Below are positions 447 through 19,770 of a stretch of DNA of 32,000 bases, in pieces. Positions within the stretch are counted from its first letter, which is position 1. Every line of letters begins with the position of its first letter. The DNA comes from Okeania sp. (GTDB lineage Bacteria > Cyanobacteriota > Cyanobacteriia > Cyanobacteriales > Microcoleaceae). Under the pieces are notes generated by a model. That model made no database searches, was not told the origin of the DNA, and saw only the letters and a program-made list of their open reading frames with translations. Position numbers and translations under genes: made by a program. The stretch covers positions 1 through 32,000 of the forward strand of contig NZ_JAYKGW010000165.1 in the NCBI RefSeq assembly GCF_035285525.1, read 5' to 3'.

Positions 447-1226
447 TCATCGATAATAAAATTCAAAATCTTTTAAAGCCATTATCCTAGTTTTATTTAA
501 ACGATAATGATAACCCATTCTCTTGCGTAACTTCTCCCCATAAGTTGCTTTTGGTTTACTACGAGAAGCATCCCAGTGCTGAGTCACTCCACTAATTTTT
601 TCCCACGCTTCACTATTAATAACCCATCCCACTTTGGCAGCAGCTAATCCCATTAAACTACCTTCTCCAGCGTGCATTCCTCTTAGTTCTGCATACTTAG
701 AAATCTTTCCCCAAGTTTCCAAAAATTCTATTTCTTTACCATTATCTCTAACTATAATAAATAAAGCTTCTCCTATCCAACTAGAATTATTAAATGAATC
801 ATTATCAATATTTAGCTTATCTGCCAACTTTTTCAATATTGGTAAACTATAAGGGCGATATCTAGAAACGTGTTCTACTAAATTTTTATGCCGTCCAGTA
901 ATTCCTGGTTTCCATTCAATATCTTCTGGCAATGATTCTAAAATTCTAGTATCAGCATCTATATATATTGCTACTGGAAATAATGATATTGCTTTCTGAC
1001 AGAGAAATCTTTTATCGTTATAACAATGTAGAATACCTTGTTGATGATATTTAAAAGCCATTACATTTTTATATATCCTAAAATCTTCAGGTTTCTCTGT
1101 ATAAATTACCAATGAAATTCCTGGAGCATTTATTTCCAAGTCTTTAGCTAATTCTTTGGCTATATCGCGATATCTTTGCCCTAGTGCTAAAGTACAAAAA
1201 CAAAATTTTTTTTGTTCCTGAGTCAT
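447..1226 (-). CDS. Uncharacterised DxD protein, putative GT-A-fold glycosyltransferase (paralogue A of 5077-5871)
   Basis: ORF 447-1250. The listed first codon is TTG, so I prefer ATG at 1226 (MTQEQKK..). It shares blocks with 5077-5871: C(F/L)CTLA(L/F)GQ.YR..AKELA, PEDF, YNDKRF and (I/V)DAD..IL. The DAD follows a hydrophobic strand, which fits a DxD nucleotide-sugar site. Confidence 0.7.
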   Translation of the reverse strand: MTQEQKKFCFCTLALGQRYRDIAKELAKDLEINAPGISLVIYTEKPEDFRIYKNVMAFKYHQQGILHCYNDKRFLCQKAISLFPVAIYIDADTRILESLPEDIEWKPGITGRHKNLVEHVSRYRPYSLPILKKLADKLNIDNDSFNNSSWIGEALFIIVRDNGKEIEFLETWGKISKYAELRGMHAGEGSLMGLAAAKVGWVINSEAWEKISGVTQHWDASRSKPKATYGEKLRKRMGYHYRLNKTRIMALKDFEFYYR

Positions 1227-1678
1227 ATTTTTACCGATAAATTTTAACAATAAAAAATACTTAAAGTTATTTGATTTGAATAAGTTGCTTCATCTATACT
1301 CTTAATACTATATCAAGGAAGATCAAATTTTTTCGTTTTTTATTGGAGCTACATCTAAAAAGATGCGTTAACAAGGAAAAGTAATTTTTGAAACCATTTT
1401 TTTTTGTAACTAGGTTTCAAGTACCTCAACCTTTACTATCAAAACACCGATATATTTCTTGATATCCTGAAGCATTAATTTTTAAACTCAATAAACGAAT
1501 CCAAAATACTAACTTCTTTTTCAGTCTTTTATTTATTTTTACAAAAATATTCGGAGAATAATTAATACTTTTTCTTTCTTTTAAAAATCGTAATTATTCC
1601 TCATTAACTTCTTGTTATTTACGCATTTTTGCCAAAGTTAGTCTATCTTTAAAAAATTAATTTTCAAATAGTTACTTT

Positions 1679-1829
1679 TTCTTTGAGCTAATCCATTATT
1701 AATTAGAGTACCTATACCTACAAAACATATTGCTTCATCATTATCAATTAGACTGGGAATTAGTTTTTCCCATAACCAAATATTGAGAGTATCACCAAAG
1801 TTCTTTTATTTGTAATAATAGAGTTTCAT
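1679..1829 (-). pseudogene. Decayed N-terminal remnant of an ExoV-type polysaccharide pyruvyl transferase
   Basis: The minus strand from ATG at 1829 reads MKLYYYK*KNFGDTLNIWLWEKLIPSLIDNDEAICFVGIGTLINNG. This aligns with the intact gene at 6624 (MKLHYFKPSKGNGNFGDNINPWLWEKLIPGFLDEDQTVAFIGIGTLIND). There is an in-frame TAA at codon 8 and further stops downstream. The rest of the gene is not recognisable. Confidence 0.65.
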
Positions 1830-1994
1830 AGGTAATTGACCTTATTAATATATATAACAATAGTTATAGCAAATATTTAAGAATCCATATTGCCAAGAGT
1901 TATAGTTAGCAATAGCTTTTTTCACAAATTTGTACTACTTAGTTCCTTAGTATTTGACTCATCATGTTCTCAAATATTGTTTCCATAAGTTGAC

Positions 1995-2924
1995 TTAATT
2001 TCGTATTTTACTTGTTATGTTTTTGACTTTATCTATAAACCTTTTTCCTAAACTTTTTTTGGTCTCAGTTTTTTGAGGATAGTAAGTAGGTTTAGCTTCC
2101 CCCAAATATCGATAATGCTCCCAAATATCCCAATAAGGGCATCCAGGTTCAATCCGAAAACCTGCCCAATGTAAATATTGTACAGGTTTACCAACTTTAG
2201 GGTCAATCAAGCGATCGCCTTCCCGTTGAAAATGAGAACTACCTGCCCAACTTCCGGAACCTTTACCTTCTGGGAGACGGACTAAGTTCAATCGCCGAGC
2301 AATATGTTTTAAGACAATATAGTTAAAAATTGGCTGATCTGTAGTTTTTTCAGAAAAGTCAAAATATTCGGTATTAGCAGCACATTCAGCAAAAGTTTCA
2401 TATAATTCATCTTCTGTAAACAGGTTTTTCTTTGATGCCCACCAACCACTATTAAATACATCTTGAAGTTGTTCTTCAGTAAATATTTTATCCTCTATAA
2501 CTTTGGATGTAAAGACATTTTTTATCCCACCTAAATATTGATAGTCGCAACACAGAAAATCATAACTTTCCAGATATTTGAGATTATCAATAATTTTTTC
2601 AAAGACAACAATATCAACATCAATATAGAGAAACTCATCGAATGGTCCGAACCAACAAGCTTGTTTTTTTTGTTTATTAGGAGTATTAAAAAAGCCTTCA
2701 CCAAAAATGTTATATAATTTCTGACAAAGATTATCTACAAATTCAAAATCTGGATAAATTTCTACTCCATATTTGCTTGTAACAATTTCTGCTACCTGGT
2801 GATAATTTTCATCAAAAGGAATCATCATAATTGGAATATCAGGATCATGTAACCTGATACTTTTCAGTAGGGCAATTGTGTTATCTAGTACCTTATCATT
2901 AGCAACAATATAAATTCCTTTCAT
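1995..2924 (-). CDS. GT8-like DxD glycosyltransferase-family protein, tandem paralogue 1 of 3 (I recall this family being named Npun_R2821/Npun_R2822-type in cyanobacteria)
   Basis: ORF 1995-2975 begins with TTG. ATG at 2924 gives MKGIYIVANDK, matching the N-termini of the two neighbours. Motifs seen: IALLKSIR..PI..IPFDEN, the DxD YIDVDIVVF, and C-terminal YLHWAGFRIEPGCPYW, which resembles the GT8 HxxGxxKPW motif. Confidence 0.75.
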   Translation of the reverse strand: MKGIYIVANDKVLDNTIALLKSIRLHDPDIPIMMIPFDENYHQVAEIVTSKYGVEIYPDFEFVDNLCQKLYNIFGEGFFNTPNKQKKQACWFGPFDEFLYIDVDIVVFEKIIDNLKYLESYDFLCCDYQYLGGIKNVFTSKVIEDKIFTEEQLQDVFNSGWWASKKNLFTEDELYETFAECAANTEYFDFSEKTTDQPIFNYIVLKHIARRLNLVRLPEGKGSGSWAGSSHFQREGDRLIDPKVGKPVQYLHWAGFRIEPGCPYWDIWEHYRYLGEAKPTYYPQKTETKKSLGKRFIDKVKNITSKIRN

Positions 2925-3138
2925 AATTTTTTCTATAAAACTACCATTAAAAATCCTTGTTATAGTAATTCCCAAGGTTATGAGGTACAGTTTTTTTCTT
3001 CTTTTTCCATTCCCTGTTCTCTAAAACCTAAAATTTTGTAAAATTTTCTACCTCACCAGTATGGGAATTACTATATGTCAATTATTCTAAATTTTCTTTT
3101 ATCTCCCTAGCTACCTTTTTTACTTTATCAATAAATCT

Positions 3139-4014
3139 TCACCCAAGACTTTTTTTCCTCTCTTTCATTTGAGGATATTCAGTTGGTTTAGATTCGCCGA
3201 TGTATCGATAATCTTCCCAGATATCCCAATAAGGACAGCCTGGTTGAATCCGAATTCCTGCCCAATGTAGATACTCTAAAGGCTGATTCAAATTCTTATC
3301 TATCAGTTTATCACCTTCTCGATGAAAATGTGATGTACCTGCCCAACTTCCTGGTGCTTTTCCTGGTCTACGAACAATATTGAAACGCTTTTTAATTAGC
3401 TTCAAAACCATATAATTAATAATTGGTTGATCGGAAGTTTTCTGAGCAAAATCAAAGTATTCTGGTTGAGTTGCACATTCAGCAAATATATCATACAAAT
3501 CCTGTTCTGAAATTAAACCTTTTTTTGATGCCCACCATCCTCCATTGAAAATATCTTTAAGTTCATCTTGACTAAAAACTTGATATATTTCTGGAGTGAA
3601 TACATTTTTAATTCCCCCTAAATGTTGATAATCAAAACATAAGAAACCATATTCATTTAGGTAATTGAGATTATGAATTATTTTATCAAAAACAACAATG
3701 TCTGTATCAATATACAAAAATTCATCAAATTCTCCAAACCAGCAGGCTTGCTTACGAAATTGATTTGGTCTGACAAAAAACTTTTTACCAAAGATTTGTT
3801 GTAGTTTATTTAATAATCTTTCAATCAATTCTAAATCTTCATAGATTTTTACTCCGTAATCTCTGGAAAAACGCTCTTCTACTATTTGAGAATTATCATC
3901 ATAGGGAATTAAAATGATTGGTGTTTCAGTATCATATTTACGGATACTATTTAAGAGGGCAATACCTTGTTCAATTACCTTGTCATTTGCAGTGATATAT
4001 ATGCCACGACTCAT
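3139..4014 (-). CDS. GT8-like DxD glycosyltransferase-family protein, tandem paralogue 2 of 3
   Basis: MSRGIYITANDK.., YIDTDIVVF, YLHWAGIRIQPGCPYWDIWEDYRY. It shares long identical runs with paralogue 1 (KQACWFG.FDEFLYID.DIVVF.KII.NL.YL, GGIKNVFT, GGWWASKK). Confidence 0.8.
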   Translation of the reverse strand: MSRGIYITANDKVIEQGIALLNSIRKYDTETPIILIPYDDNSQIVEERFSRDYGVKIYEDLELIERLLNKLQQIFGKKFFVRPNQFRKQACWFGEFDEFLYIDTDIVVFDKIIHNLNYLNEYGFLCFDYQHLGGIKNVFTPEIYQVFSQDELKDIFNGGWWASKKGLISEQDLYDIFAECATQPEYFDFAQKTSDQPIINYMVLKLIKKRFNIVRRPGKAPGSWAGTSHFHREGDKLIDKNLNQPLEYLHWAGIRIQPGCPYWDIWEDYRYIGESKPTEYPQMKERKKSLG

Positions 4015-4028
4015 AAAACTTTCCTCTC

Positions 4029-5033
4029 TTATTGCATAAATTTTAGCTTCTTGAAAATTCGCTGAAAAAGATTAGGTGTATTTTTATATGGTATTGGTTT
4101 GCCTGTAAATTTTGGTCTTTTTTCCGGTTCATGGAGATAGCGATAATGGAGGAAAATATCTCGATAAGGGAAATCTAAATTTTCTCCTGCACAAACTCTA
4201 GTAAATACTTTAGATGAGACCCCAATGTAGTGTAAATAAGTTAATCTTACACCCTTATCATAAAGTAAATTATCCCGATATTCAAAATGAGGAGAAGTTA
4301 CAGAACAACCAGTTTTTTGTTCTGGGGGTAAATGCAGAGCAAAATTATAAATTGAGGCTTGCGATCGCATCATCATATAATTAATAATTGACTGATCTGG
4401 GCCATTAAGATATAAAATTTCTGATTCTCCAGAATTTAGTTTTTCTAACAACCAATTCCGCTTTTCTTCCGGAAATAAATCTTTTTTAGAACCATACAAA
4501 CCAGCGCAAAATATTTCCGACTCAATCCTTTCTTTACTGAAAATTTCTAGTAATTTAGGTGAATTAACATTGTAAACATGGGTAGGATCTTTATATTGAA
4601 AATCATATACAACTGCATCATTTCCATCTATTTTTTCAAAGAGATAATCGAAAGAATTTAGCACCAATATATCAGCATCCAAGAAAATAAATCTTTCAAA
4701 AGGACTTTCCAAATCAAAAGAGCAAAATCTGCGGTGCATTCCCATCCGGTTCACACCAGAAACCCCTTTTTCCTGCCAACGAGCAAAAGCATTAGGATGA
4801 CTTTCCCAGATTTTTGTCGAGAAGTCTTCCCACCGACTTAATATTTCCTGATTATCTAATAATTGTACATTTTTTCTGTTTTGAATTTCTGGTATAATTT
4901 TATTTAAGCGATCATCATAAGGGATGACACAAACTGGAAAGTCTGGACCAAGATTAACTTCTATACTATTTAGTATAGCAATAAGTTGATCGTAGACAAC
5001 ATCATTAGCGAGAGTGTAAATTCCTGTGGTCAT
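4029..5033 (-). CDS. GT8-like DxD glycosyltransferase-family protein, divergent tandem paralogue 3 of 3
   Basis: MTTGIYTLANDVVYDQLIAILNSIE..PVCVIPYDD, FLDADILVL, YLHYIGV...FPYRDIFLHYRYL. GGAGGAG lies about 8 nt upstream of the ATG. Only 14 nt separate its stop (4029) from the next start (4014), so the two are probably co-transcribed. Confidence 0.75.
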   Translation of the reverse strand: MTTGIYTLANDVVYDQLIAILNSIEVNLGPDFPVCVIPYDDRLNKIIPEIQNRKNVQLLDNQEILSRWEDFSTKIWESHPNAFARWQEKGVSGVNRMGMHRRFCSFDLESPFERFIFLDADILVLNSFDYLFEKIDGNDAVVYDFQYKDPTHVYNVNSPKLLEIFSKERIESEIFCAGLYGSKKDLFPEEKRNWLLEKLNSGESEILYLNGPDQSIINYMMMRSQASIYNFALHLPPEQKTGCSVTSPHFEYRDNLLYDKGVRLTYLHYIGVSSKVFTRVCAGENLDFPYRDIFLHYRYLHEPEKRPKFTGKPIPYKNTPNLFQRIFKKLKFMQ

Positions 5034-5076
5034 TCAATTTCTCCTCCATACTGAATGAAATTCAATTTTTGTGAAT

Positions 5077-5871
5077 ATGAAAAACGAAACCATTGAAAAT
5101 CCAATTTCCTACTGTTTATGTACTTTAGCATTTGGTCAATCATATCGAATGGCTGCCAAAGAATTAGCAACTAAGGCTGCAGAATCAGGAATCAGATTAA
5201 CTGTTGCTACAGATGAGCCAGAGGATTTTAAAGACCATTATAATGTTACTGCACTGAATTTTACTAGAACCAGTATCTGGAAACCTTATAATGATAAAAG
5301 ATTTGCTGTGGCTGCAGCTTTAAAAGACAATGAATGTGTAATTTTAGTAGATGCTGATAGTAATATACTAGCAGAATTGCCAAAAAAAATTAATGTTGAG
5401 CCAGGAATGACTGCATACACAGCTTATAAATCACTTGAAGAAGACTTGATTCTGCACCATGCCCAAGAAAATTTAGAAGGGTTTCGTCAATTAGCGAAAA
5501 AACTCCATATAGATTTAGCTCAGACAAAATGGGTAGCTGAAAATTTAGTTATAATCAGGAGAGATGGTGGCAAGGAATGGCAATTTCTAGATACATGGGC
5601 TTTTGCTGACCGATATTTGGGTATTAGAAAAGTATTTCAAGGGGATCATGGTTTTATAGGAGTTTCTGCTGCTTCCGTAGGTTGGCAAGTGAAGCGCAAT
5701 GATGATTTTAATCAACTTAAGTCCATAATCAAAAATATGGGTCGCGATAGTTTAGAAAAACGGACAAAACCAACTTATCTAACAAAAACCAAAAGCAGAA
5801 TAATGTTTCATTATCTCTACTACAAAGCTTTATTCAATTCATTATTGAATTATGACAAGTATTGGTCTTGA
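5077..5871 (+). CDS. Uncharacterised DxD protein, putative GT-A-fold glycosyltransferase (paralogue B of 447-1226)
   Basis: ORF 5071-5871 begins with GTG, and an ATG follows at 5077. It carries the same motif blocks as 447-1226 (YCLCTLAFGQSYR..AKELA, PEDF, YNDKRF, VDADSNIL). It is divergent from 4029-5033 with only ~40 nt between the two starts. Confidence 0.7.
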   Translation: MKNETIENPISYCLCTLAFGQSYRMAAKELATKAAESGIRLTVATDEPEDFKDHYNVTALNFTRTSIWKPYNDKRFAVAAALKDNECVILVDADSNILAELPKKINVEPGMTAYTAYKSLEEDLILHHAQENLEGFRQLAKKLHIDLAQTKWVAENLVIIRRDGGKEWQFLDTWAFADRYLGIRKVFQGDHGFIGVSAASVGWQVKRNDDFNQLKSIIKNMGRDSLEKRTKPTYLTKTKSRIMFHYLYYKALFNSLLNYDKYWS

Positions 5872-6623
5872 AAATTTTATTTTGTTAGAATGAGGCTAAA
5901 AGTTAATTTTTACTACCCTAAAATAACTCAAATACTTCAAATTTTCCTAAAGAGACACAAGATAGTTATTGATTTGATTTGATTTTTCGGTTTTGGTGAA
6001 TCAAGCTATGATATCTAAATTGGAGTAAATAGAAAATGCGTTTGAGTTAATAGTTAGGCGCTCGTTATTGTAGCACAATCATAGCCAAAATCACCAATAC
6101 TTATTTTTTCCTTCTGATACTTTTGGTGCATCTATCTAATCTAGTTTAAGCAAGAAAGACTGATTCTAGAATCTTGAGAAGGTAAGTTATATTTAGGTAT
6201 CATTCCTAAATATAAAACACGCATCCTAGAGTTAAAATCTCTAGAGAACCTTATAGCTATCTAAAAAGTCAATATTATCAGGAAAAGGACTCGGCCACTT
6301 GAAAAGAAACTTCAATATTTTCAGTAGTCAGTTAAAGTAGGCGTTAAGATTTAGTATTATGTAACAATGTTTCAACCTCCACTCAAGTAAAATTCTTGGA
6401 TAAATTTGGAGTTAATTTGTAAATCTTAATACATTGACCCAGTGTGCAACTCTCTACGAAAATCAACGGCTTATAGAACCCATTTTGGTTCTATAGAAAT
6501 CTTTATGTTCCCACAGCAAATCAAACAATTATTGCCAGGAACATGATCGACTTTAATAATTAAGTCCTAGTGAATTTTGCAGTAATGAAGTGATAATTTA
6601 ACTTAAATTTAGTCAAAAAAATT

Positions 6624-7511
6624 ATGAAATTACATTACTTTAAACCCAGTAAAGGCAATGGTAACTTTGGAGATAATATTAATCCCTGGCTTTGGGAAAA
6701 ATTAATTCCTGGTTTTCTAGATGAGGATCAAACAGTAGCTTTCATTGGAATAGGTACATTAATTAATGATTCCCTACTACTTAGCACTTCAATGGCTAAA
6801 AAAAGAATTATTTTTAGTACAGGAGTAGGGTATGGAGAACTTTCTACGATAAACATAGATAGTTCTTACCATATTTATTGTGTAAGAGGTCCATTATCAG
6901 CCTTCAAACTAGGATTATCATTAGATTATGCAGTTACAGATGGTGCTATTTTAGTGAAAAATTTTTTTGATTATAATCTGAAAAAAAATCGCAAATATTC
7001 CTATATGCCTCATCATAATTCAGTTAATCAAAATTGGAAAATTCTTTGTCAAGAATTAAATATTAGTTATATAGATCCATCGCTACCAGTTGAAGAAATT
7101 TTCAGGGAAATTGCACAAACAGAAATATTATTAACTGAAGCAATGCACGGTGCTATTATTGCAGATACATTTAGGGTTCCTTGGATTCCTATTGTTACTC
7201 GTGATGGTATTCTACTATCCAAATGGATAGATTGGTGTTTTTCAGTGGGATTAGAGTATAGACCTAAACATTTACCCCACTTACATTATCATCAATCGTA
7301 TAAAAAAGATTTAATTACTCCCATGAGAAATGTTAAATATTTGTACCAAAATTGGAATCATAGAAAAGATATTTTGCAAAAATTTCATAAAATAATTAAG
7401 GAATCAAAACCTTGTTTAAGTAGTAATTCAAAGCTAAATGAACTAAGCGATAAATTAGAGGAAAAAATGAATCTCTTGATTAGTGACTATCGCTCTGGAA
7501 AATTTGAATAA
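6624..7511 (+). CDS. Polysaccharide pyruvyl transferase family protein (ExoV-like)
   Basis: The N-terminus MKLHYFKPSKGNGNFGDNINPWLWEKLIP and the later LLTEAMHGAIIADTFRVPWIPI are characteristic of ExoV/CsaB-type pyruvyl transferases. Confidence 0.75.
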   Translation: MKLHYFKPSKGNGNFGDNINPWLWEKLIPGFLDEDQTVAFIGIGTLINDSLLLSTSMAKKRIIFSTGVGYGELSTINIDSSYHIYCVRGPLSAFKLGLSLDYAVTDGAILVKNFFDYNLKKNRKYSYMPHHNSVNQNWKILCQELNISYIDPSLPVEEIFREIAQTEILLTEAMHGAIIADTFRVPWIPIVTRDGILLSKWIDWCFSVGLEYRPKHLPHLHYHQSYKKDLITPMRNVKYLYQNWNHRKDILQKFHKIIKESKPCLSSNSKLNELSDKLEEKMNLLISDYRSGKFE

Positions 7512-8768
7512 TATTTTTAACTATACAAACAAAGGGTAAAGGGAAAAAAACGGTTTGACATTTTTTTTCTTTAACCTTCTACTTATGGAGATAGGGAATA
7601 GGGAGTAGTTAGGAGTTAAGAGAAAGTAGGAGTTATAGAGGAGTTAGCCGGAAAAAGAGTAAGAGTGATTCTTCTATCCTAGTCAGCCAAAAATGATCAA
7701 TTTTTGATTTTTCACCGATTTCTCGGGAACCGTACCCTACCTCAGTAGCCTAAAAGTTAGGACTTTTTGATACCTAAAATTTCCAAAACCTTTACTGGCA
7801 AAACTGTTTAGATTTAATCAGCTCATAATTCAGGTTTGCTGAAAAAGTATTTTTGTCAGGGGAGAAGCTAGAATCGAGAATCCAGGAGGAATGAAAATTA
7901 TAGAATAGGTAGTCAGAATAGTCTTTAGAGTGATTTTCTCCCCTATCTCGCCCAAAATCCTAGAATGCATGATTTTTCGCGAACCGTACCGAAATTACCA
8001 CTGAAACTGGTACTTTATTAGTTGCCAAGCTTGAAATCTTTATCTTTCAATGCTTTGATATTTAATCAGCCAGCTCTAATTAGAATTGATTAGAATTGTT
8101 AAAAATTGGCTCAAATCTCAAATACCCTTCACTAAGGACTTAAGTAAAAAACTAACTGCGAAAAAATGGCCTAACAAGTCAATTGTATAGCGCTGCGGGT
8201 AGGGAACAGGCAACAGGCAAGAGGAAGAATGAATAGCCTATAATATAAGGTTTTTAGCTATTGGACACCTCCAGTAATTTGTAAATATTAAGTGCGCACA
8301 TTGCTATAGTATTCTTTTTAACAAGAGAATGTGTTAAGCAAGGATATGATGTGAAAATTTTCACTAATTGTGAAGATAAAGAGGGTATTTATGGAGTAAT
8401 TAATATATTATTAACTCTGACAAAATTAACTGGTACGATACCTTTAATACTTTAATTATTTGGAAGTTTCCTAACATATTACCCTCCTATACCAACCCTA
8501 AAAGAACCTGGTTGGACTGCCATAATATTATTATTTGTGATCCTAATATTTTGAGCTAGGTATGATAAAAATTCTACTAAAAGTTATTATCACCTTAATT
8601 TATTGCTAGACATACCTGATAATAAACTTGTAATTATAAAAAGCACTGCCGATTCCTCTATTTTAGAACTAAATAGGGTTTTGGGAAAAAGTCTTTTTGT
8701 ATTTGGTAGGGAGTGGGTAGTAGGGAGTAGGGCAAAAAAGTGGATCAAGCTGAAAATTTATTTTCTTT

Positions 8769-8803
8769 ATACCTGTATATGTAAATAAAACATATACAGG
8801 TAT
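8769..8803 (+). terminator. Orphan intrinsic-terminator-like hairpin (13-bp perfect stem plus T-rich tail) with no credible upstream gene
   Basis: ATACCTGTATATG (8769-8781), 9-nt loop, CATATACAGGTAT (8791-8803), then TTTGATTATTTT. On the minus strand the tail would be A-rich, so it is oriented for the plus strand. Confidence 0.5.
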
Positions 8804-8906
8804 TTTGATTATTTTCCGGATTTAGGAAATCTTTATTGAAAGATGAAAGAGAATAGTGAAACTTTTCAATATTCTACTGGTAGTTTTAATTAAGGATCCA
8901 TAATTA

Positions 8907-9851
8907 ATGTTATCTAAAACTTGTTCACTCTCAATCTTAGTAGCAAGAACAGACATACCTTTTATGATGCATACAATTCCTCATATCGTTAGAATGAGTA
9001 ATTTTAATTTTATTGAAAAAGTTTTGTGTATGGATACAGCACCTCTATCTGGAGATAAAGTTATGCGTCCTGGTATTGGTACTCTAAGTGAACTGAGAGA
9101 TTGCTGTGACCAACTAATAAGTGAAGGTATTGTAGATAAAGTTGTGGAGATTAAATATGACGAAACTTATCAAAAGGAAATGTACCAAAAGCATTTTGGC
9201 AGTCGGATTAAACCCACCCATAACTATAAAGGTTATCCAATCTTGGGATCAATTTTTCATTTAGAGTCTGTACCTGGAGATTATGTGTTGCATTATGACA
9301 GTGATATGCTTCTACATCAGCAACCAGATTATAGTTGGGTAGATGAAGGTATGAAGTTAATGGAGAAATATCCGGAAATAATGGCAATTAGACCATTGAC
9401 AGGACCGCCAACTGAGGATGGTAGTATATACCAAAGACATGAATACCTAAAATCAGATGCAGGGGAGTTTTATCAATTCAAATTTTTCAGCAGTAGGGTA
9501 TATTTGATTAACCGTAAACGCTTTGACAAGTTACTGCCATTGCCAATTTTATGGCGTTCTTACAAAAATAAATTTCTTAATCAACTGCCACTAAACCTAA
9601 AAACTCCCTTAAATTACTATACCAACAAAGGCAAGCTGGATTCTTGGGAGGTTATGGTATCTATGCAGTTAGAGAGAACTGACTATGTACGAGCAACTAT
9701 GAGTTCCCCCAAGGCGTGGACAATTCATCCTAAAGACCGAAGTCCAGAATATATTAGATCTTTACCAAATATTATCGAAAAAATAGAGCAAGGATGGTAT
9801 CCACCTGAGCAAGCTGGACACTATGACTTTATTTCAGAATATTGGCTTTGA
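8907..9851 (+). CDS. Hypothetical protein, possible GT-A-like transferase (DSD motif)
   Basis: 314-aa ORF with an ATG start. N-terminal SLSILVARTD..., and VLHYDSDMLLH after a hydrophobic strand resembles a DxD site. It sits inside the glycosyltransferase island. The family was not recognised with certainty. Confidence 0.55.
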   Translation: MLSKTCSLSILVARTDIPFMMHTIPHIVRMSNFNFIEKVLCMDTAPLSGDKVMRPGIGTLSELRDCCDQLISEGIVDKVVEIKYDETYQKEMYQKHFGSRIKPTHNYKGYPILGSIFHLESVPGDYVLHYDSDMLLHQQPDYSWVDEGMKLMEKYPEIMAIRPLTGPPTEDGSIYQRHEYLKSDAGEFYQFKFFSSRVYLINRKRFDKLLPLPILWRSYKNKFLNQLPLNLKTPLNYYTNKGKLDSWEVMVSMQLERTDYVRATMSSPKAWTIHPKDRSPEYIRSLPNIIEKIEQGWYPPEQAGHYDFISEYWL

Positions 9852-10039
9852 GGAAACCAGAATTAACTTAAAAATATAGTTTTTTCCCCTATCTTGATCA
9901 AGGAAGTTTATGTTATTTAACTTAAGCCAATATGGAAATTTATTTACCTTTCAAACCTCTGCAATCATAAAATTACTATTTCTACAAATATAGCATTTAT
10001 CAAGCTAACGAAGCCTGCTTATCATTTTCTTACTTATTT

Positions 10040-10086
10040 AGGACTTACAGAAGGAAACTATATATATTTTCCTGGCGTAAGTCCTG
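10040..10086. mobile_element. Minimal MITE of the CAGGACTTACGCA-TIR family
   Basis: AGGACTTACAG..(AT-rich core)..GGCGTAAGTCCTG, i.e. terminal inverted repeats with almost no interior. Confidence 0.55.
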
Positions 10087-10190
10087 CTATGGCAAAAGTT
10101 GCTTTTGCTTATACCAATTTCATAAAATATTGCTACTGGACTGTTTTAGCTAAAATAGTGGGTTTATTTTTAGTTGTGAGTTGTGGCAAG

Positions 10191-10235
10191 ACAAGGAAGA
10201 CAAGGAAGACAAGGAAGACAAGGAAGACAAGGAAG
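10191..10235. repeat. 9-nt tandem repeat ACAAGGAAG x5
   Basis: Five exact head-to-tail copies, followed by degenerate copies (AAAGGAAG, ACAAGAGAG). Confidence 0.9.
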
Positions 10236-10293
10236 AAAGGAAGACAAGAGAGAAAAATCTATTGCCACATTTAAGATGAAACAATCCAGTAGT

Positions 10294-10411
10294 GGACTGT
10301 TTCACTTAAAACTGTGCATGATTATTTGTCATGGCGCGACTCGCAGCGCCAGCGAAGCGCAAACACATTCGTTTGCGGAGCATGGCCTCAGGAAAGCAAT
10401 CTCAGGCCAAC
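10294..10411. mobile_element. Degenerate MITE copy, inverted relative to 10823-10976
   Basis: It shares TCATGGCGCGACTCGCAG and GCGGAGCATGRCCTCAGGAAAGCAATCTCA with the reverse complement of 10823-10976. Its ends are decayed. Confidence 0.45.
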
Positions 10412-10669
10412 TTCACTATTGCACCATTTTAAGAATATACTGACGTGTCAAGACTAAAATTGTGGATTAGGAACAAGCAACAAGCGAAGACCTCTCCCCC
10501 AACCCCTCTCCTGCGAGGAGAGGGGAGAAATATCCCCCAACGCTAGTAGGGAAGGGGCTTGGAGGCCGTGTTGTTTCATCCACATTTTCAAGTTTGACGC
10601 GCCACTACAGTGCTTTTATCTATAATGATGGGAATTTAGAGATTAACATTGTAACAACCTTTTTTTTCT

Positions 10670-10762
10670 AAGGACTTACGCACCAAGCGCTACATCTAGT
10701 CAGGGCAAATGGCATTTGCTCCTACGGATAGTGTATATTTTTATATTTGACGTAAGTCCTGT
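10670..10762. mobile_element. MITE, CAGGACTTACGCA-TIR family
   Basis: AAGGACTTACGCACC ... TGACGTAAGTCCTG terminal inverted repeats. Confidence 0.65.
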
Positions 10763-10822
10763 TGATTTGGTATGATAACCCATAATATCAAATCCAGTAG
10801 TATTGGTATAAAAAAACATAGA

Positions 10823-10976
10823 CAGGACTTATGTATTAGGAAGGAGTTTTGGTCATTTGAGATTGCTTTCCTGAGGTCATGCTCCGCGACATGAATGCGG
10901 AGCGAAACGCTGTCGCTTGCTATAGCAAAGCTGCGAGTCGCGCCATGACAGAAATAAGTTGTTTTGCGTAAGTTCT
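10823..10976. mobile_element. MITE, CAGGACTTACGCA-TIR family, long form with GC-rich core
   Basis: CAGGACTTATGTATTAGGAAGGAGTTTTGGTCATTTGAGATTGCTTTC ... ATGACAGAAATAAGTTGTTTTGCGTAAGTTCT. A shorter relative lies at 31891-31983. Confidence 0.7.
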
Positions 10977-11277
10977 AATCGAAACTGGGTTTATATGAAA
11001 TACCAACTATACTAATATTTATCTTCCATAAACCGGGTTTCTGATAACCCTTCTATTGCGAAAGGATTTGATATAATTTTGTACTTCACCGCTATGGCAA
11101 TTCCTATATCTGAACTGCCGATGTACAGGGGAAGTCCAGCTATATTTTGGCAAAATTTATTTATAATAATTGATTTTAATTCATTATTTGTCAATATTGA
11201 GCAAAAGCTTGAGCAAATTTTATTTACATCAATTTCATAAATATAAACAACAAAAACATAGTATTTTAGTAAAAATA

Positions 11278-12459
11278 ATGGTTGAGTCAATGAGTATTGA
11301 TAATTTAGGTAATGTCTCTAAAAAAAAGTCAATTGCTGTCTTTTATCCCTTATTTTCTGGTGGAGGTGCTGAGTCAGTTGGCTTGTGGATATTAGAAGCT
11401 TTAAAAGAAACATACGATTTAACATTATTTACTCTATTTAATGTAGATTTTGATAAACTGAATTCTATGTACGGAACTCAAATTTCTCAGGAAATGGTAA
11501 AAGTTAAAGCAATTTTTCCTAAAGTAACTGAGCGTTCTTTCAAGTTCTTATTTGCAAATAATAGAAAATTAGCAATTATGGCAATGCATCTTGTGCTACG
11601 GCATTTGAAAAGTCATAATCAGGAATATGATTTACTATTATCTGGTTACAATGCTGTAGACTTTGGCCGTATCGGAGTTCAATATGTTCATTGGATTAAT
11701 GTGATTTCTAATGAGGGGCTGTATGGTAAAATTTCTAACTCTTCCTTGGAGAATATTAAGCTTAACATATCAATGGTAAATTCTTTTTCAGTATCTAAAT
11801 TATTTAAAGATAAATTTGGTATTGATGCCAAAGTTGTATATCCTCCTGTTTTACTGGATGAGCAAAATATATCTTGGGAAGAAAAAGAAAATGCTTTTAT
11901 TTGTAGTGGAAGATTGACATCAGCTAAAGCTCCTCATAAAGTGATTCAGATATTGAAAAAAGTTCGTCAAAAAGGTTTTGATGTTAAGCTTTATATTACA
12001 GGAGGGGGAGGAGGAGTATATGGGTGGAAATATAAAAGAACATTGACAAAAATGGTTAAAGAAAATAGTGAATGGGTGAAGTTGTGTGAAAATCTACCTT
12101 ATAAAGACTACGTTAAAATTCTATTCAAGTGTAGATATGGTATTCACCACAAACCAGAACCTTTTGGTATTTCAGTAGCAGAAATGATGAAAGCAGGTGC
12201 AATACCTTTTGTCAGAAGTAAACGAAAAGGAATAGCAGGACAAGTAGAGATAGTTGGAGAAGAAAATCAAGAGTTATTTTTTGAGGATCAAGATGATGCT
12301 GTAGAAAAAATCACTAATGTTCTTCAAGATTCAGAAATACAGCAAAAACTTCAAGGAGCTTTGCTGAAGAGAAAAGATTTCTTTTCTACTGAGAAATTTA
12401 TGGCTGGTATTAGTGAGGTTGTCAAAAATTATTTTCAACAACACAGCAATCCTATTTGA
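11278..12459 (+). CDS. Glycosyltransferase family 4 (GT-B fold, Glycos_transf_1-type)
   Basis: KKSIAVFYPLFSGGGAESVG at the N-terminus and EPFGISVAEMMKAGAIPFV (the E..G....EAM..G.P motif) near the C-terminus. ORF track start 11170 adds an implausible AT-rich leader, so I prefer ATG 11278 (MVESMS..) or 11290. Confidence 0.8.
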   Translation: MVESMSIDNLGNVSKKKSIAVFYPLFSGGGAESVGLWILEALKETYDLTLFTLFNVDFDKLNSMYGTQISQEMVKVKAIFPKVTERSFKFLFANNRKLAIMAMHLVLRHLKSHNQEYDLLLSGYNAVDFGRIGVQYVHWINVISNEGLYGKISNSSLENIKLNISMVNSFSVSKLFKDKFGIDAKVVYPPVLLDEQNISWEEKENAFICSGRLTSAKAPHKVIQILKKVRQKGFDVKLYITGGGGGVYGWKYKRTLTKMVKENSEWVKLCENLPYKDYVKILFKCRYGIHHKPEPFGISVAEMMKAGAIPFVRSKRKGIAGQVEIVGEENQELFFEDQDDAVEKITNVLQDSEIQQKLQGALLKRKDFFSTEKFMAGISEVVKNYFQQHSNPI

Positions 12460-12616
12460 TAGGAATTTCGTGTTTTTTTATTTGATTTGTCACAATCAAT
12501 TTAGGATTATGATAATATAAAAATTATGTGATATTTCTAATTTATTGAAAATCTTGTATTGTAAGCAGAGCCTCAAAATATTTAGGGTTTGTTGAAAAAG
12601 TCTTTTTCAGCAAGCC

Positions 12617-13003
12617 TTAATTATCATTTGTGCTAGATTTTTGAGCAATTTCCATATAGCTTAATAGCCAATTTGCCATAGTAGCACGACGAGCTTGTGT
12701 AGGGGTAAATTCGCCTATTTTATAACCTTTGAAACCCAATTTTTGTTTTAATAATTGTTTATTTTCTGGAGGAATAGAGCGAGTCAATTTGACAGTGGGC
12801 GGACGAAATTCAATAAAATTTGGAGGTTCTGGATATTTCTCTCGCCATTCTGGTGCTACCTGGGAAATATCCCATTTATGAGAAGTATTATCATAACGAT
12901 AACCAAGATAATACCAAACTAATTGATTGACAGTATTATCATCAATTTTTTCGTCAATAATTGCTTGAATAGTTTCTGTGTTTAGTGGTGGTAGTTCAGG
13001 CAT
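12617..13003 (-). CDS. Conserved cyanobacterial hypothetical protein (recalled as DUF1823-like)
   Basis: 128-aa ORF with an ATG start and good coding character (..NQLVWYYLGYRYD..WD..V.PEWREKYPEPPNFIE..). The family name is from memory only. Confidence 0.6.
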   Translation of the reverse strand: MPELPPLNTETIQAIIDEKIDDNTVNQLVWYYLGYRYDNTSHKWDISQVAPEWREKYPEPPNFIEFRPPTVKLTRSIPPENKQLLKQKLGFKGYKIGEFTPTQARRATMANWLLSYMEIAQKSSTNDN

Positions 13004-13064
13004 AAAAGCTATTTTTTTTTACTATTAAGTTATTAAATATCATTTCTTTATTTTACCCACGCAA

Positions 13065-13097
13065 AGAAACCCGGTTTCTTCAAGAAACCGGGTTTCT
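13065..13097 (-). terminator. 15-bp-stem palindromic hairpin (GAAACCCGGTTTCT family) downstream of gap, followed by GGTTTCTGA STRR
   Basis: AGAAACCCGGTTTCT-tca-AGAAACCGGGTTTCT. It lies between the gap stop (13144) and the next gene's start (13003). Only a short U tail is present on the minus strand. Confidence 0.4.
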
Positions 13098-13143
13098 GGG
13101 TTTCTGAGTTTCTGAGTTTCTCCGTGTAAATCCTAATACTTTT

Positions 13144-14187
<1,044 letters not shown>

Positions 14188-14218
14188 CTATATAATTAAA
14201 AGTTTCTCAGGCGAACCT

Positions 14219-14251
14219 AGAAACCCGGTTTCTCGTAGAAACTGGGTTTCT
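14219..14251. repeat. Third copy of the GAAACCCGGTTTCT palindromic hairpin, upstream of gap; probably the inner part of a deleted MITE ending TGTGTAAGTTCTG at 14275
   Basis: AGAAACCCGGTTTCT-cgt-AGAAACTGGGTTTCT, with one G-U position. Compare the interior of the MITE at 25589-25690. Confidence 0.55.
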
Positions 14252-14487
14252 TTGTGTAAGTTCTGTTAATAACTTCACGTCACTACCAGAATAGAGTAGA
14301 GATATTCTATGGAACATTCCTACTCTGGTTTAACAATTGAAAACCGTTGTAAGTATTAAGACTTACCGATTAAAAATTATCACAAGAGAAATTAGTTATG
14401 AATTATTCTTTTCCATATCTTAAGAATCTGGAAGTACCTGGAGGAATATGGGAGGTGTGGGAAGGTTGGGGAGTTTGGGAAGTATCA

Positions 14488-14512
14488 CTTCTGACTTCTG
14501 ACTTCTGACTTC
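14488..14512. repeat. STRR heptamer array CTTCTGA x3+
   Basis: Direct reading: CTTCTGACTTCTGACTTCTGACTTCC. Confidence 0.85.
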
Positions 14513-14536
14513 CAAAGGAGTATAGGGAGATTTGGT

Positions 14537-14667
14537 CAGGACTTACGCAAAATAGCAAATTATACATCAGGTGTAGGGGCGTTTCATGTCGCGGAGCGCG
14601 ATACGGCCGTTTGCTTCGCATACTTCGTAACGCCCCTACTAAATATAGTGGTTCTGCGTAAGTCCTG
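14537..14667. mobile_element. MITE, CAGGACTTACGCA-TIR family
   Basis: CAGGACTTACGCAAAATAGC ... GGTTCTGCGTAAGTCCTG. The interior hairpin is GTAGGGGCGTT..AACGCCCCTAC. Confidence 0.7.
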
Positions 14668-14761
14668 TTGGTAATAGAACATTTTTTTCTACTGAGTGAA
14701 TTAAGCTGATATGATTTATTAATCTCTCAAAAATTAATTGCTTACCAAAAAATAAGGGTAG

Positions 14762-14893
14762 GTGCCTCCCCTTTTAAGGGGATGAAAAAATATTGAACAC
14801 GGTTCCCGATAAATCAGTATTTCAAGCCTCCGATTTCTAACGCCCACCGTGTTTACTCGGAGGTTCGCTCTCTACTGATAACTGATAACTGAA
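14762..14893. repeat. Mosaic intergenic repeat (family: CAGTTAT STRR - TAGAGA - TTGAAATACTGA - TTTTTTCATCCCCT.AAAAGG), reverse orientation, abutting the HAD start codon
   Basis: Its reverse complement aligns block-wise with 16786-16875 and 17319-17533. It also carries a GGTTCCCGA box and an extra CCTCCGA..TCGGAGG hairpin. Confidence 0.6.
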
Positions 14894-15604
14894 ATGACCC
14901 CAATCAAAATGACTACAATCTTATTCTGGGATATTGATGGAACATTATTAACTACTGATAGAGCAGGTATCTTTGCTCTAGAAGATGCTGCAAGAGAAAT
15001 TATTGGTAAAGAGATAGATTTATCAAACCTTAATACAGCAGGAGCAACGGATCGTTTACTAGCAGCTCAAATTTTAGAATTAGGGGGTATTACTCCTGAT
15101 GATGGAAAAATAGATCAACTATTACAAGTTTATGGTGAATATCTACCTGAAAGTCTCACTAGAAAACAAGGAGGAGTATTACCAGGAGTCAAAGAAATTC
15201 TCTCTCATTTACATCCTAACCGTAACGATGTAGTTTCTCTATTACTAACAGGAAATACCTCTGTGGGAGCAAGGGCAAAACTTACTTACTATGGTTTAGA
15301 TAGTTATTTTAATTTTACTCAGGGTGGATTTTCAGATACAGTAGCAGATAGAAAAGCGATCGCTCGTCAAGCGTTAACCAGTGCCCAAGAATTAGTAGGA
15401 GAAATTAATTTAGAAAAAGTTTATGTGATTGGAGATACACCCCATGATATAAGTTGTTGTCAGGCGATTGGTGCTAGGTCTATTGCTGTTGCTACTGGTT
15501 CGTTTAAATTAGAGGAGTTACAAGAACATAATCCTTGGTGGGCTATACCTTGTTTACCAACACCAGATGTTTTTATCGATAAAATCAGCTTAAGAAATTA
15601 TTAA
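14894..15604 (+). CDS. HAD-superfamily hydrolase (phosphatase, phosphoglycolate-phosphatase-like subfamily)
   Basis: Motif I FWDIDGTLL (DxDGT), motif II LLTGNT, and motif IV VIGDTPHDI. Confidence 0.85.
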   Translation: MTPIKMTTILFWDIDGTLLTTDRAGIFALEDAAREIIGKEIDLSNLNTAGATDRLLAAQILELGGITPDDGKIDQLLQVYGEYLPESLTRKQGGVLPGVKEILSHLHPNRNDVVSLLLTGNTSVGARAKLTYYGLDSYFNFTQGGFSDTVADRKAIARQALTSAQELVGEINLEKVYVIGDTPHDISCCQAIGARSIAVATGSFKLEELQEHNPWWAIPCLPTPDVFIDKISLRNY

Positions 15605-15679
15605 AAAGGTACCGAAAAACAAAACTTTCAAATAAAAATAAATAGAAAAATATATTGAGACCCAAAAGTTTTGAACAAT

Positions 15680-16780
15680 ATGAAACTACTAACTAAGACT
15701 CATAAATTTTCTCATGTTTTAGACAGAAAGTTAGATTTATTTGGATGTGTGCGTGTAGGTAATGGCAATGTAGCTTCATGGCATGAAAAAAAATTAAGGG
15801 ATATAGGAATTAGTACTCTAGGGATTATCGAACCAAATTTGCTTAAACAACAAGAGGCAGTCAAGAGAGGAATCAATGTATTTTCATCTTTTGTAAAAGC
15901 AGCAGAAATGCGCCCGCTATTCTGGGATATTTGTTGTCCTACTAATACTCATGTTGAAGTTATTAGGAAAATTATAGAAATTGATAATAAGGCTAATATT
16001 GTTGTAGAAAAACCTGTCTGCAATTACGAAGAGATTGAAATGTTATGTGAATTGTTGCAGGGATTTCAAGGAAAGCTTGTTGTTAATGAAAATTATATAG
16101 AATCATCAGTAACTCAGAAGATTAAAGAATTAATTATATCTCTGAAAATTACGCCCCAAAGGGTTGTCTCAGAAATGACTAAAAATAGAGTAAATGATTT
16201 TATTAATGGTCGATTTTTAGATAATAATTTTTATGCTTTTGGCTATGAAGATTCACATATAATTGCCAATGTTATGGCTCTGGGAAAAGAATATTTACCT
16301 CATAAAATTGGGAATATCTTTTATCAAGATATAGACATAAAAGTTAAGGATAAAAATTACTTTTTGCCTAAGCAAGGAATGGTAGAAAAACATTATACCG
16401 CAGTTAATGATGCAGAAGTGGTATTGTACACTTCTATGACAGGAAAAATCAAATATTTTTATCCAGGATGGTCTTCAAAATACTTTGATCGAGTTCCTGA
16501 AGAGGAAAATGTTCGGTATCGTGTATTAGCTGTAGAAGACTATAACACGGGTATAACTATAGCTGGATTTTATGAGCCAATTATTGGTCAAAATCGAGGG
16601 GAAGGAAAAGTTGTTGTTTACCAAGATGGCATTGTAGAAGAAATTATCTCCTCTATAACTGATGATACAATGGGCATATCAATGAAAAATGCTGTAGAAT
16701 ATTTTCAGGGAAAAAGAAATAATCCTTGTTCGGCAAAAACAGCTATTCAAATAGTAGAAATTATGAATTTATGGCATTAG
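15680..16780 (+). CDS. Divergent Gfo/Idh/MocA-like NAD(P)-dependent oxidoreductase (tentative)
   Basis: VGNGNVASWH at the N-terminus, TNTHVEVIRKII..NIVVEKPVC (the EKP motif) and KLVVNENY fit the Gfo/Idh/MocA N-domain layout. The C-terminal half was not recognised. ORF track start 15671 is TTG, and an ATG follows at 15680. Confidence 0.5.
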   Translation: MKLLTKTHKFSHVLDRKLDLFGCVRVGNGNVASWHEKKLRDIGISTLGIIEPNLLKQQEAVKRGINVFSSFVKAAEMRPLFWDICCPTNTHVEVIRKIIEIDNKANIVVEKPVCNYEEIEMLCELLQGFQGKLVVNENYIESSVTQKIKELIISLKITPQRVVSEMTKNRVNDFINGRFLDNNFYAFGYEDSHIIANVMALGKEYLPHKIGNIFYQDIDIKVKDKNYFLPKQGMVEKHYTAVNDAEVVLYTSMTGKIKYFYPGWSSKYFDRVPEEENVRYRVLAVEDYNTGITIAGFYEPIIGQNRGEGKVVVYQDGIVEEIISSITDDTMGISMKNAVEYFQGKRNNPCSAKTAIQIVEIMNLWH

Positions 16781-16785
16781 TCATT

Positions 16786-16875
16786 TCAGTTATCAGTTAT
16801 CGGTATCTTCCAGCTTTTGCTAGAGACTTAAAATACTGAATTTTCTTTTTTTTTCATGCCCTTGAGAGGAGAGAC
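16786..16875. repeat. Mosaic intergenic repeat, same family as 14762-14893
   Basis: TCAGTTATCAGTTATC..TAGAGACTTAAAATACTGAATTTTCTTTTTTTTTCATGCCCTTGAGAGGAGAGAC. Confidence 0.6.
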
Positions 16876-16923
16876 AAATATCCCTTGATTTCGGCAAAAA
16901 AATGAAAGTAAACATTAAAAAAA

Positions 16924-19386: not shown

Positions 19387-19393
19387 AAAGATC

Positions 19394-19423
19394 GGAAAGA
19401 AGAAAGAAGAAAGAAGGAAGAAG
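19394..19423. repeat. STRR heptamer array (GAAAGAA/GGAAGAA) 8 nt upstream of the GT39-like start codon
   Basis: GGAAAGAAGAAAGAAGAAAGAAGGAAGAAG. On the coding (minus) strand this is a pyrimidine-rich TTCTTTC leader. Confidence 0.8.
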
Positions 19424-19509
19424 TTGGAACAGAAGGAAAAACCTTACAGAAGGTAGATATTTTCCCAATTTTTTACACGCTCCGATACCAACGGACATGA
19501 TATTAAATC

Positions 19510-19746: not shown

Positions 19747-19770
19747 CTAATTCTTTCTACTCCCTACTCC

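Follow-up and report, generated by a model that had tools for sequence, protein, structure and literature searches.

What do the transferase genes at positions 447-12459 of a contig from the marine, filamentous cyanobacterium Okeania sp. make, and do they form a system of their own? The region lies on contig NZ_JAYKGW010000165.1 (assembly GCF_035285525.1), of which a stretch of 32,000 nt, referred to here as the window, was analysed. It contains eight intact open reading frames (ORFs), and every one of them encodes a transferase, as a preliminary description of the region had claimed for all of its credible genes. That description regarded the genes as a candidate for an undescribed system decorating a sheath or exopolysaccharide (EPS). 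The interpretation proved partly right, but the core of the locus belongs to a cluster found throughout cyanobacteria and is not an isolated island. The region is probably the Okeania-lineage form of that cluster, which would build a cell-surface glycan, most likely an exported heteropolysaccharide (sheath, EPS, or capsule-like). We read the locus as a reshuffled, strain-variable, and exporter-less version of the conserved transferase cluster, and thus as a hypervariable locus for the decoration of a surface polysaccharide. The eight genes, named by protein family with GT standing for glycosyltransferase, are as follows.

A1, 447-1250, minus strand: unannotated GT-A family (A), DxD motif IDADT; fold deduced from the A2 model
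B1, 1995-2975, minus strand: NF045582 family, B1/B2 type, DxD motif IDVDIV; probable start at 2924
B2, 3139-4014, minus strand: NF045582 family, paralogue of B1
B3, 4029-5033, minus strand: NF045582 family, "first gene of the pair" type, DxD motif LDADIL
A2, 5071-5871, plus strand: unannotated GT-A family (A), DxD motif VDADS; divergent from B3
P, 6624-7511, plus strand: polysaccharide pyruvyl transferase, PF04230
C, 8907-9851, plus strand: conserved cyanobacterial singleton with a predicted GT-A fold, DxD motif YDSDML
G, 11170-12459, plus strand: GT4 (GT-B); start uncertain, 11170 or internal Met codons near 11275

A1, A2, B1-B3, and C have a DxD motif, with a predicted GT-A fold in A1, A2, and C and a putative GT-A-like architecture in B1-B3; G is a GT4 of the GT-B type, and P is a ketal-pyruvyl transferase. 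None of the eight proteins has a transmembrane-like segment; hence, they are expected to work in the cytoplasm or at the inner membrane face. A2 and C showed 100% identity to NCBI entries named "hypothetical protein [Okeania sp.]". The A1 ORF starts with TTG at 1250, and the gene in the public assembly begins at the internal Met codon at 1226 and encodes 259 aa (exact product match). A 309-aa B1 product is called in L002, where L-numbers (such as L083) denote the loci of our B3-profile and homologue comparisons.

The evidence for a conserved cluster came from a genome-collection scan with a B3 profile, which gave 80 loci from 80 species-level genomes. The window proteins were mapped onto these loci, all ORFs were clustered, and the cluster representatives were annotated. 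In 72 of the 80 loci, the gene that comes after B3 on its strand was of the B1/B2 type, and this arrangement is the Npun_R2822-Npun_R2821 pair; on the minus strand of the window the order is B3, B2, and B1. The commonest neighbourhood consists of dnaB, rplI, gloB, GT4a, an ATP-binding cassette (ABC) exporter gene, GT4b, a GT10-like gene, B3, B1/B2, sometimes A, a conserved 117-aa ORF, and an ABC1 kinase gene. It was found in heterocystous genera and in several non-heterocystous ones (e.g., Aerosakkonema, Argonema, and Leptolyngbya), and in some loci gloB is followed by an additional gene, which encodes either a GT2 or a further transferase that matches Nucleotid_trans/GT8 weakly. Counted over the 80 loci, the GT10-like gene was a neighbour in 52, the ABC exporter in 43, GT4a in 40, GT4b in 32, and A in 23-24.

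The other genes of the window have their places in this cluster as well. Calothrix PCC 7507 carries, in this order, gloB, GT4, C, ABC, a GT4 of the G type that shares 54% identity with G, a gene with a faint PS_pyruv_trans match, a B1/B2-type gene, and ABC1 kinase; the faint PS_pyruv_trans gene had no tblastn match to P. Scytonema PCC 7110 has gloB, GT2, GT4, C, ABC, and GT4, and Trichocoleus has an epimerase gene (Epim), B, and B3, followed divergently by C, one gene, and the ABC exporter. C and B3 are divergently oriented neighbours in Coleofasciculus, Lusitaniella, and one more genome. G orthologues (53-54% identical) adjoin the ABC exporter in L057, L060, L073, and L085, and in three Calothrix/Rivularia-type loci the B pair is followed by a P-type gene and A side by side. 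B3, the B pair, and C keep a conserved chromosomal position, with flanks syntenic with those of other genera. The lack of the usual partners, which the preliminary description noted for the window, is local to the Okeania clade; elsewhere the same genes cluster with a HepA/MsbA-like ABC exporter. It is also noted that in Scytonema hofmannii PCC 7110 (L089) the region 6655-16954 comprises two successive GT4-ABC exporter modules with a DDE transposase gene between them. C is present in the first module only, and the second ABC protein has a faint HisKA-like C-terminal extension, as in L055.

All three B proteins passed the 250-bit cut-off of the NCBIfam family NF045582 (Npun_R2821/Npun_R2822), with 328.1 bits for B1, 315.2 for B2, and 427.5 for B3. 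B1 and B2 are 62% identical, and B3 is 27-28% identical to either of them. Thus, the three genes called GT8-like in the preliminary description are indeed paralogues, but their likeness to GT8 is weak. B3 reached 21.1 bits against Glyco_transf_8 (PF01501; E = 2.6e-4) and failed the gathering score of 24.3, and no PF01501 match was obtained for B1 or B2 in Pfam. Against Mannosyl_trans3 (cut-off 22), B1 barely passed with 22.8 bits, B2 gave 20.5, and B3 gave 19.9; among 22 members of the B family, 12 matched Mannosyl_trans3 and five matched GT8 in Pfam, all weakly. The DxD motif (D119 and D121 of B3) is invariant in the family. When the B profile was compared with sequences of the Protein Data Bank (PDB), it aligned with the DxD of the GT8-type Skp1 galactosyltransferase in a weak match (E = 0.22). 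B3 had 1828 homologues, and its orthologues are 60-70% identical in Nostocales, Oscillatoriales, Chroococcales (Microcystis, Aphanothece, and Rippkaea), and Leptolyngbya-type lineages.

The ABC exporter of the cluster is a single polypeptide with fused transmembrane and nucleotide-binding domains. Its best NCBIfam match was the HepA family at 562 bits, followed by MsbA_lipidA at 452 bits, both below the cut-offs, and a PglK match was also obtained. Since the cut-off for HepA is 725 bits, the exporter is considered to be a paralogue of HepA. The HEP island with HepA of Anabaena sp. PCC 7120, which makes the heterocyst envelope polysaccharide, is likewise a cyanobacterial cluster of an ABC exporter and GTs, and in other genera the B, C, and G homologues stand with the fused exporter and several GT4/GT2 genes. 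The cluster differs from the HEP island in that its exporter stays below the HepA cut-off, in that it is also present in non-heterocystous genera, and in that the Okeania window has no exporter. Okeania belongs to Oscillatoriales (Microcoleaceae) and is not known to form heterocysts, so the framing of the preliminary description in terms of Nostocales, the heterocyst envelope, and nitrogen step-down is not applicable. Three features speak for an exported heteropolysaccharide: an exporter of the HepA type, a pyruvyl transferase, and, in sister strains, sulfotransferases and an MBOAT acyltransferase. Cyanobacterial sulfotransferases are mostly found in putative EPS clusters and are abundant in marine Trichodesmium (PMC8205485).

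The same exporter bears on the main rival to an exported heteropolysaccharide, namely a role in the outer core or O-antigen of lipopolysaccharide (LPS). In that case the ABC protein would be a flippase of the MsbA/Wzk/PglK type for lipid A-core or for an O-chain linked to undecaprenyl diphosphate, the GT4 and GT8-like enzymes would have roles of the WaaG and WaaI/J type, and the Okeania locus would be serotype-like. The 452-bit score against MsbA_lipidA and the PglK match agree with this, as does the name "lipopolysaccharide biosynthesis glycosyltransferase" that one database gives to a B homologue. Furthermore, the position of the locus between housekeeping genes is conserved and its content is strain-variable, and GT4 together with GT8-like genes is the classical make-up of a waa cluster. 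In Helicobacter pylori, according to a report on its Wzk pathway (PMC2841628), a single-polypeptide ABC flippase and fucosyltransferases make the O-antigen, which resembles the GT10-like (fucosyltransferase-type) gene and the MsbA/PglK-like ABC gene of the conserved cluster. However, the best match of the ABC protein is HepA and not MsbA, both under their cut-offs, and no lpx or ligase gene was recurrent among the conserved neighbours in the 80 loci. The sulfotransferases, MBOAT, and pyruvyl transferase of the clade also point more to EPS, though O-antigens can bear such groups. We therefore regard the LPS role as unlikely. With the enterobacterial waa and O-antigen loci and H. pylori Wzk, the cluster has in common that GT4 enzymes and GT8-like retaining transferases occur together and that a mosaic middle lies between flanks that are conserved; it differs from the waa/O-antigen loci in having no lipid A, 3-deoxy-d-manno-oct-2-ulosonic acid, heptose, or ligase genes nearby and in that B falls under the GT8 cut-off of Pfam, and its likeness to LPS loci is one of genes.

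How the cluster looks in Okeania was seen from its relatives. In Okeania, Dapis, and related Microcoleaceae, no ABC exporter, GT10-like, GT4a, or GT4b gene occurs within 10 kb of the locus. The flank on the B1 side comprises A1, an epimerase gene, the 117-aa ORF, ABC1 kinase, and a DegT aminotransferase gene; the other side comprises a GT4-like gene, C, and G. The left flank beyond A1 was deduced from the loci of relatives, in which the epimerase and DegT aminotransferase genes, outside the window here, come just past A1. L083, L003, and L007-L014 have common flanks and a differing middle. The interval between C and B3 varies by genome: in relatives it holds Sulfotransfer_1/3 genes, an MBOAT acyltransferase gene with a partner ORF, and other GT-like genes, and in the window it holds A2, P, and a GT4-like relic, with no sulfotransferase. 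Genes have been swapped in the interval from C to the B genes, and relics remain. L083 is the closest relative of the locus, with B2-type, B3, and A2 proteins at 82-89% identity, and it has sulfotransferases in place of P, has no B1-type gene, and contains its own relics of A1-like and B1-like genes. B3 occurs as two alleles in the clade, 86-89% identical to the window in L003 and L083 and 65-66% in other Okeania (including L008-L012), and B1 is approximately 90% identical in L003, other Okeania, and Dapis-type loci. That B3 has two diverged alleles while B1 stays at approximately 90% suggests that B3 may have undergone allelic replacement by recombination.

Such mosaicism might also be expected of a horizontally acquired accessory island carrying a self-contained, undescribed, and lineage-specific decoration system, which was the view of the preliminary description. 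Strain-dependent content, gene relics, and the insertion of an element resembling a miniature inverted-repeat transposable element (MITE) are in line with that view, as are the rarity of A2-type proteins (five matches in a word-indexed search) and a TnpB-like fragment at the same locus in L083. On the other hand, orthologues of B3, the B pair, C, and G are 53-70% identical and occur in the same neighbourhood in many cyanobacterial orders, and the flanks are syntenic with those of other genera. The island genes have a GC content of 0.30-0.36 and a GC content at third codon positions (GC3) of 0.19-0.29, inside the range of the other window genes (0.29-0.40 and 0.16-0.27, respectively), so there is no compositional sign of a recent foreign origin. 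Horizontal transfer on grounds of composition was accordingly rejected. An accessory island is improbable in our judgement. The term "accessory-looking" does not suit the core of the locus: in B3, the B3-B pair, and C, identity remains at 60-70% in unicellular as well as filamentous cyanobacteria, and their position is conserved. The island genes also match the rest of the window in GC and GC3. The preliminary description would have given way to universal conservation and synteny with a characterised polysaccharide locus; we found wide conservation and synteny with a polysaccharide-type cluster, but one for which we could find no characterisation.

The decay at the locus was traced to two gene relics.

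Pyruvyl-transferase relic, 1662-1829, minus strand: N-terminal 50-60 codons only, upstream of A1; found by tblastn
GT4-like relic, 8086-8677, plus strand: opening ~180 codons of a 367-codon gene, interrupted by several stop codons and a frameshift; directly 5' of C

The preliminary description was correct as to duplication and decay in that B1 and B2 are paralogues, as are A1 and A2, and in the relic at 1662-1829, but it missed the second relic. Both of the other enzymes that it named were confirmed. P scored 44.8 bits against PS_pyruv_trans (PF04230), above the cut-off of 25.3, and covered model positions 87-277 of 280. G passed the cut-offs of Glycos_transf_1 (53.7 bits against 26.4) and Glyco_trans_1_4 (31.3 against 27). 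Among PDB sequences, no solved relative of P was found, a match to a designed protein being taken as spurious, and nothing usable was found for G. The P relic is 57% identical to residues 1-51 of P and 53-55% identical to residues 1-60 of the Calothrix/Rivularia P-type proteins (tblastn), and the relic followed by A1 gives the same P-then-A order as in the Calothrix/Rivularia-type loci. P and its relic have an identity of 57% at the protein and 72% at the DNA level, and are about as distant from each other as A1 is from A2 (35% identical). A recent duplication was rejected because these identities are too low; for the same reason, two old P/A modules would fit P and its relic better. The GT4-like relic was found by tblastn with the intact gene of L083, which matched two frames at E = 1e-24 and 2e-22 and revealed in-frame stops. 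Its intact family matches Glyco_transf_4 and Glycos_transf_1, and a GT4-like gene is directly upstream of C in relatives too. As a separate observation, a fragment of 87 aa that resembles TnpB/Cas12f and has a weak TNB domain separates the GT4-like gene from C in L083 (18704-18967), which is further evidence of mobile-element traffic at the site.

A and C are the proteins for which the databases gave least. A1, A2, and C had no Pfam or NCBIfam match. When 43 members of family A were compared with Pfam, the single match was TusA (E = 0.008), which is unrelated, and no GT family was matched; of 22 members of family C, one had a weak GT2 match. A search of PDB sequences with the A profile returned only kinases near E = 0.4 and no usable relative. 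We therefore turned to predicted structures. The AlphaFold model of A2, built with 43 sequences, had a pLDDT of 95.6 and a pTM of 0.92. In a Foldseek search of the PDB, its best 50 matches were all GT-A transferases (E from 9e-7, the top ones at approximately 1e-6 to 1e-5; template-modelling (TM) score 0.4-0.58; identity 9-14%), and the top matches were retaining GT-A enzymes, namely UGGT (GT24), ABO/BoGT6a (GT6), and glycogenin (GT8). Both D94 and D96 show a conservation of at least 90% over the 43 sequences. The model of C (pLDDT 85.4) matched POMGNT1 and GnT-I (GT13) at E = 1.6e-7, and then ColGalT1 (GT25), ppGalNAc-T (GT27), and BcsA (GT2), and D131 and D133 are invariant in its family. 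As judged from these models, A and C are predicted to be GT-A glycosyltransferase folds. The assignment of A1, A2, and C as DxD transferases in the preliminary description is thereby supported, that of A1 by way of A2. The description had added that proteins without a nucleotide-sugar-binding fold would speak against it, an objection that falls away with the GT-A folds and the DxD motifs of A and C.

The two families differ in distribution. C had 411 homologues, and among the 120 matches listed the identity was 60-87%, apart from the identical Okeania entry; orthologues are 60-70% identical across cyanobacterial orders. Family A is small, with five matches in the word-indexed search and 273 clusters among 1.84 billion representatives in a profile scan. 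Its named members are cyanobacterial "hypothetical proteins" with one exception, a 108-aa fragment from a metagenome-assembled genome labelled Bacteroidota. Profile-profile comparison by hhalign gave a probability below 5% for A-B, C-B, and A-C, and beyond the DxD region there is no sequence evidence of kinship. The literature searches gave no experimental study of the A, B, or C families or of Npun_R2821-R2823, in accordance with the preliminary description, and the clusters listed in an Anabaena biofilm paper are different ones. In the window, only 37 bp separate the start codons of the divergent genes B3 and A2, or 43 bp with the publicly annotated A2 start at 5077; this leaves no room for two promoters that overlap neither each other nor a coding region.

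The folds themselves suggest another possibility, that the enzymes act in O-glycosylation of a protein (a pilin, an S-layer protein, or an oscillin-like surface protein) or in glycosylation of a lipid or small molecule, and not in polysaccharide synthesis. The closest folds of A and C include the protein-modifying GT-A enzymes UGGT, glycogenin, POMGNT1, ppGalNAc-T, and collagen galactosyltransferase, and a PMT_2 gene of the GT-C type is 8 kb off in the window and beside C in Coleofasciculus. These matches, however, are at the level of the fold only. A shares with the CAZy families GT8, GT6, and GT24, and C with GT13, GT25, GT27, and GT2, a predicted Rossmann-like GT-A fold and a conserved DxD, and B, in which the fold is putative, has the conserved DxD in common with the families named for A; but the identity is 8-14% with a TM score of 0.4-0.55, and A and C lack any Pfam, NCBIfam, or PDB sequence match. 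Moreover, the recurrent partners are a polysaccharide- or lipid-type exporter and further GTs. No acceptor-protein gene was recurrent in the 80 loci, and for this reason glycosylation of a protein or small molecule is less likely; we think it highly improbable.

Returning to the exported heteropolysaccharide, we propose the following scheme. The enzymes would act in sequence at the inner membrane face on a lipid-linked oligosaccharide, to which those encoded at the locus would add branch sugars and a pyruvate ketal, and export and priming may be carried out by genes elsewhere in the Okeania genome. The mosaic content may reflect diversifying selection on the surface structure, as at O-antigen and capsule loci. 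Several points weigh against this proposal. No exporter, priming transferase, polymerase, or ligase gene was found in the 32-kb window or within 10 kb of any Okeania-clade locus, and the type of pathway in Okeania is therefore extrapolated from other genera. EPS and the O-chain or core of LPS seem to fit the sequence data alike, and the putative diversifying selection is read from gene content alone. The link between B and GT8 consists of Pfam matches that are sub-threshold or barely at threshold, and A, B, and C are unlinked to one another by profile comparison. In addition, one A2-type homologue stands alone amid unrelated genes on a metagenome contig, which indicates that A is not strictly tied to the cluster.

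A locus of GTs for a surface glycan is a well-known kind of system, and this one would not reveal a new kind. What is new is the two GT-A families outside Pfam and NCBIfam, the recognition of a conserved, exporter-linked, and uncharacterised cluster, and its exporter-less mosaic form in Okeania. Synechan of Synechocystis PCC 6803 offers a further comparison. Its gene cluster (xss) is a plasmid-borne, nearly complete sulfated-EPS cluster of the Wzx/Wzy type (PMC8205485). Many GTs together with sulfotransferases, the latter present in the Okeania-clade variants as Sulfotransfer_1/3, are common to both (PMC8205485), whereas the locus has no Wzx/Wzy, polysaccharide copolymerase (PCP), or outer membrane polysaccharide export protein (OPX), and the copy in the window has a pyruvyl transferase and no sulfotransferase. 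Going further, and only tentatively, A and C may be previously unclassified GT-A families, A being restricted to cyanobacteria as judged from its named members, that together with the Npun_R2821/R2822 pair, the GT10-like enzyme, and the HepA-paralogous ABC exporter constitute an uncharacterised cyanobacteria-wide surface-glycan pathway, of which the Okeania locus would be a serotype-like hypervariable form that swaps pyruvylation for sulfation between strains.

Sheaths, EPS, and LPS influence how cyanobacteria form mats and blooms, how they bind metals, and how susceptible they are to grazers and phages, and few biosynthetic clusters have been matched to a product. Here, hypothetical proteins that looked isolated become a defined and testable unit, a cluster between gloB and ABC1 kinase with a HepA-like exporter, the Npun_R2821/R2822 pair, and two GT-A families. 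The presence of orthologues in genetically tractable strains brings the product within reach of knock-out. The occurrence of a pyruvyl transferase in some Okeania strains and of sulfotransferases in others suggests that the chemistry of surface charge is what varies; if true, this would bear on interactions with phages and grazers and on metal scavenging in the marine Okeania/Trichodesmium lineage.

Regarding the remainder of the window, the genes to the right of G encode a DUF1823 protein, GAPDH, a HAD hydrolase, a GFO/IDH/MocA oxidoreductase, a PMT_2 GT-C, and an LPG_synthase_TM protein, followed by unrelated genes. In a Pfam scan of 19 window ORFs, no family of Wzx/Wzy, PCP/OPX, or priming transferases was found, and the Pfam scan of the window ORFs gave no ABC exporter gene in the 32 kb. 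The statement that the usual partners are missing is thus correct for Wzx/Wzy, the ABC exporter, and the priming transferase, but it passed over PMT_2 and LPG_synthase_TM at 17.8-20.8 kb. These two genes adjoin at 17863-20769 on the minus strand (eight and six transmembrane-like segments, respectively), with a 56-nt tandem repeat in four copies (19454-19708) between them, and look like a pair for periplasmic transfer of lipid-linked sugars. A PMT_2 gene is near or next to C also in Coleofasciculus (L087), and an LPG_synthase_TM homologue (63%) is 8 kb from C in L075.

The spacers of the locus measure 744, 752, 1395, and ~1320 bp. They were described in the preliminary account as ORF-free and filled with MITEs and short tandemly repeated repetitive (STRR) sequences. 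No ORF of at least 80 aa was indeed present, but the repeats come down to one element each of the following kinds, none with an assigned strand.

9-nt tandem repeat AAGACAAGG, 6.9 copies, 10188-10248: repeat scan
7-nt repeat, 8706-8732: repeat scan
MITE-like hairpin element, 10322-10957: inverted ends of ~80-100 nt, in the C-G spacer

The inverted arms of the MITE-like element are 97-100% complementary, its DNA fold has -141 kcal/mol (z = -12.6), and a partial copy is present at 31880-31984. Calothrix and Scytonema carry the ABC exporter gene between their C and G-type genes, the interval that contains this element in the window; no relic of an ABC gene was detected in the C-G spacer, and no cluster protein matched the spacer by tblastn. 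The other spacer DNA consists of gene relics or is plain AT-rich sequence. A scan of the whole window gave no Rfam family. Promoter-like sites numbered 77 where 60 +/- 8 were expected, and terminator-like sites numbered 8 where 6.8 were expected, both being near chance.

Further repeats were observed in the window. A ACGTAAGTCCT / AGGACTTACG motif occurs in both orientations in the C-G spacer region (10040-10991) and again at 31428-31757, close to where the window ends. A dispersed palindromic element, AGAAACCCGGTTTCT...AGAAACCGGGTTTCT, is present at 209-257, 13057-13105, 14211-14259, and 25636-25684, and two of the copies flank the GAPDH gene. A 193-nt tandem duplication (20784-21169, 94% identical) is directly upstream of a PD-(D/E)XK transposase-like gene (PDDEXK_2 and DUF4351, 21225-22148). 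The gene at 22621-24834 encodes a 737-aa TonB_C-domain protein and contains internal DNA repeats, with 193-nt units at 23277-23868 and 30-nt units at 24176-24355. Finally, an STRR-like heptamer array of CCTATTG / CCCTATT units was found at 26689-26828, upstream of a response-regulator/histidine-kinase gene.

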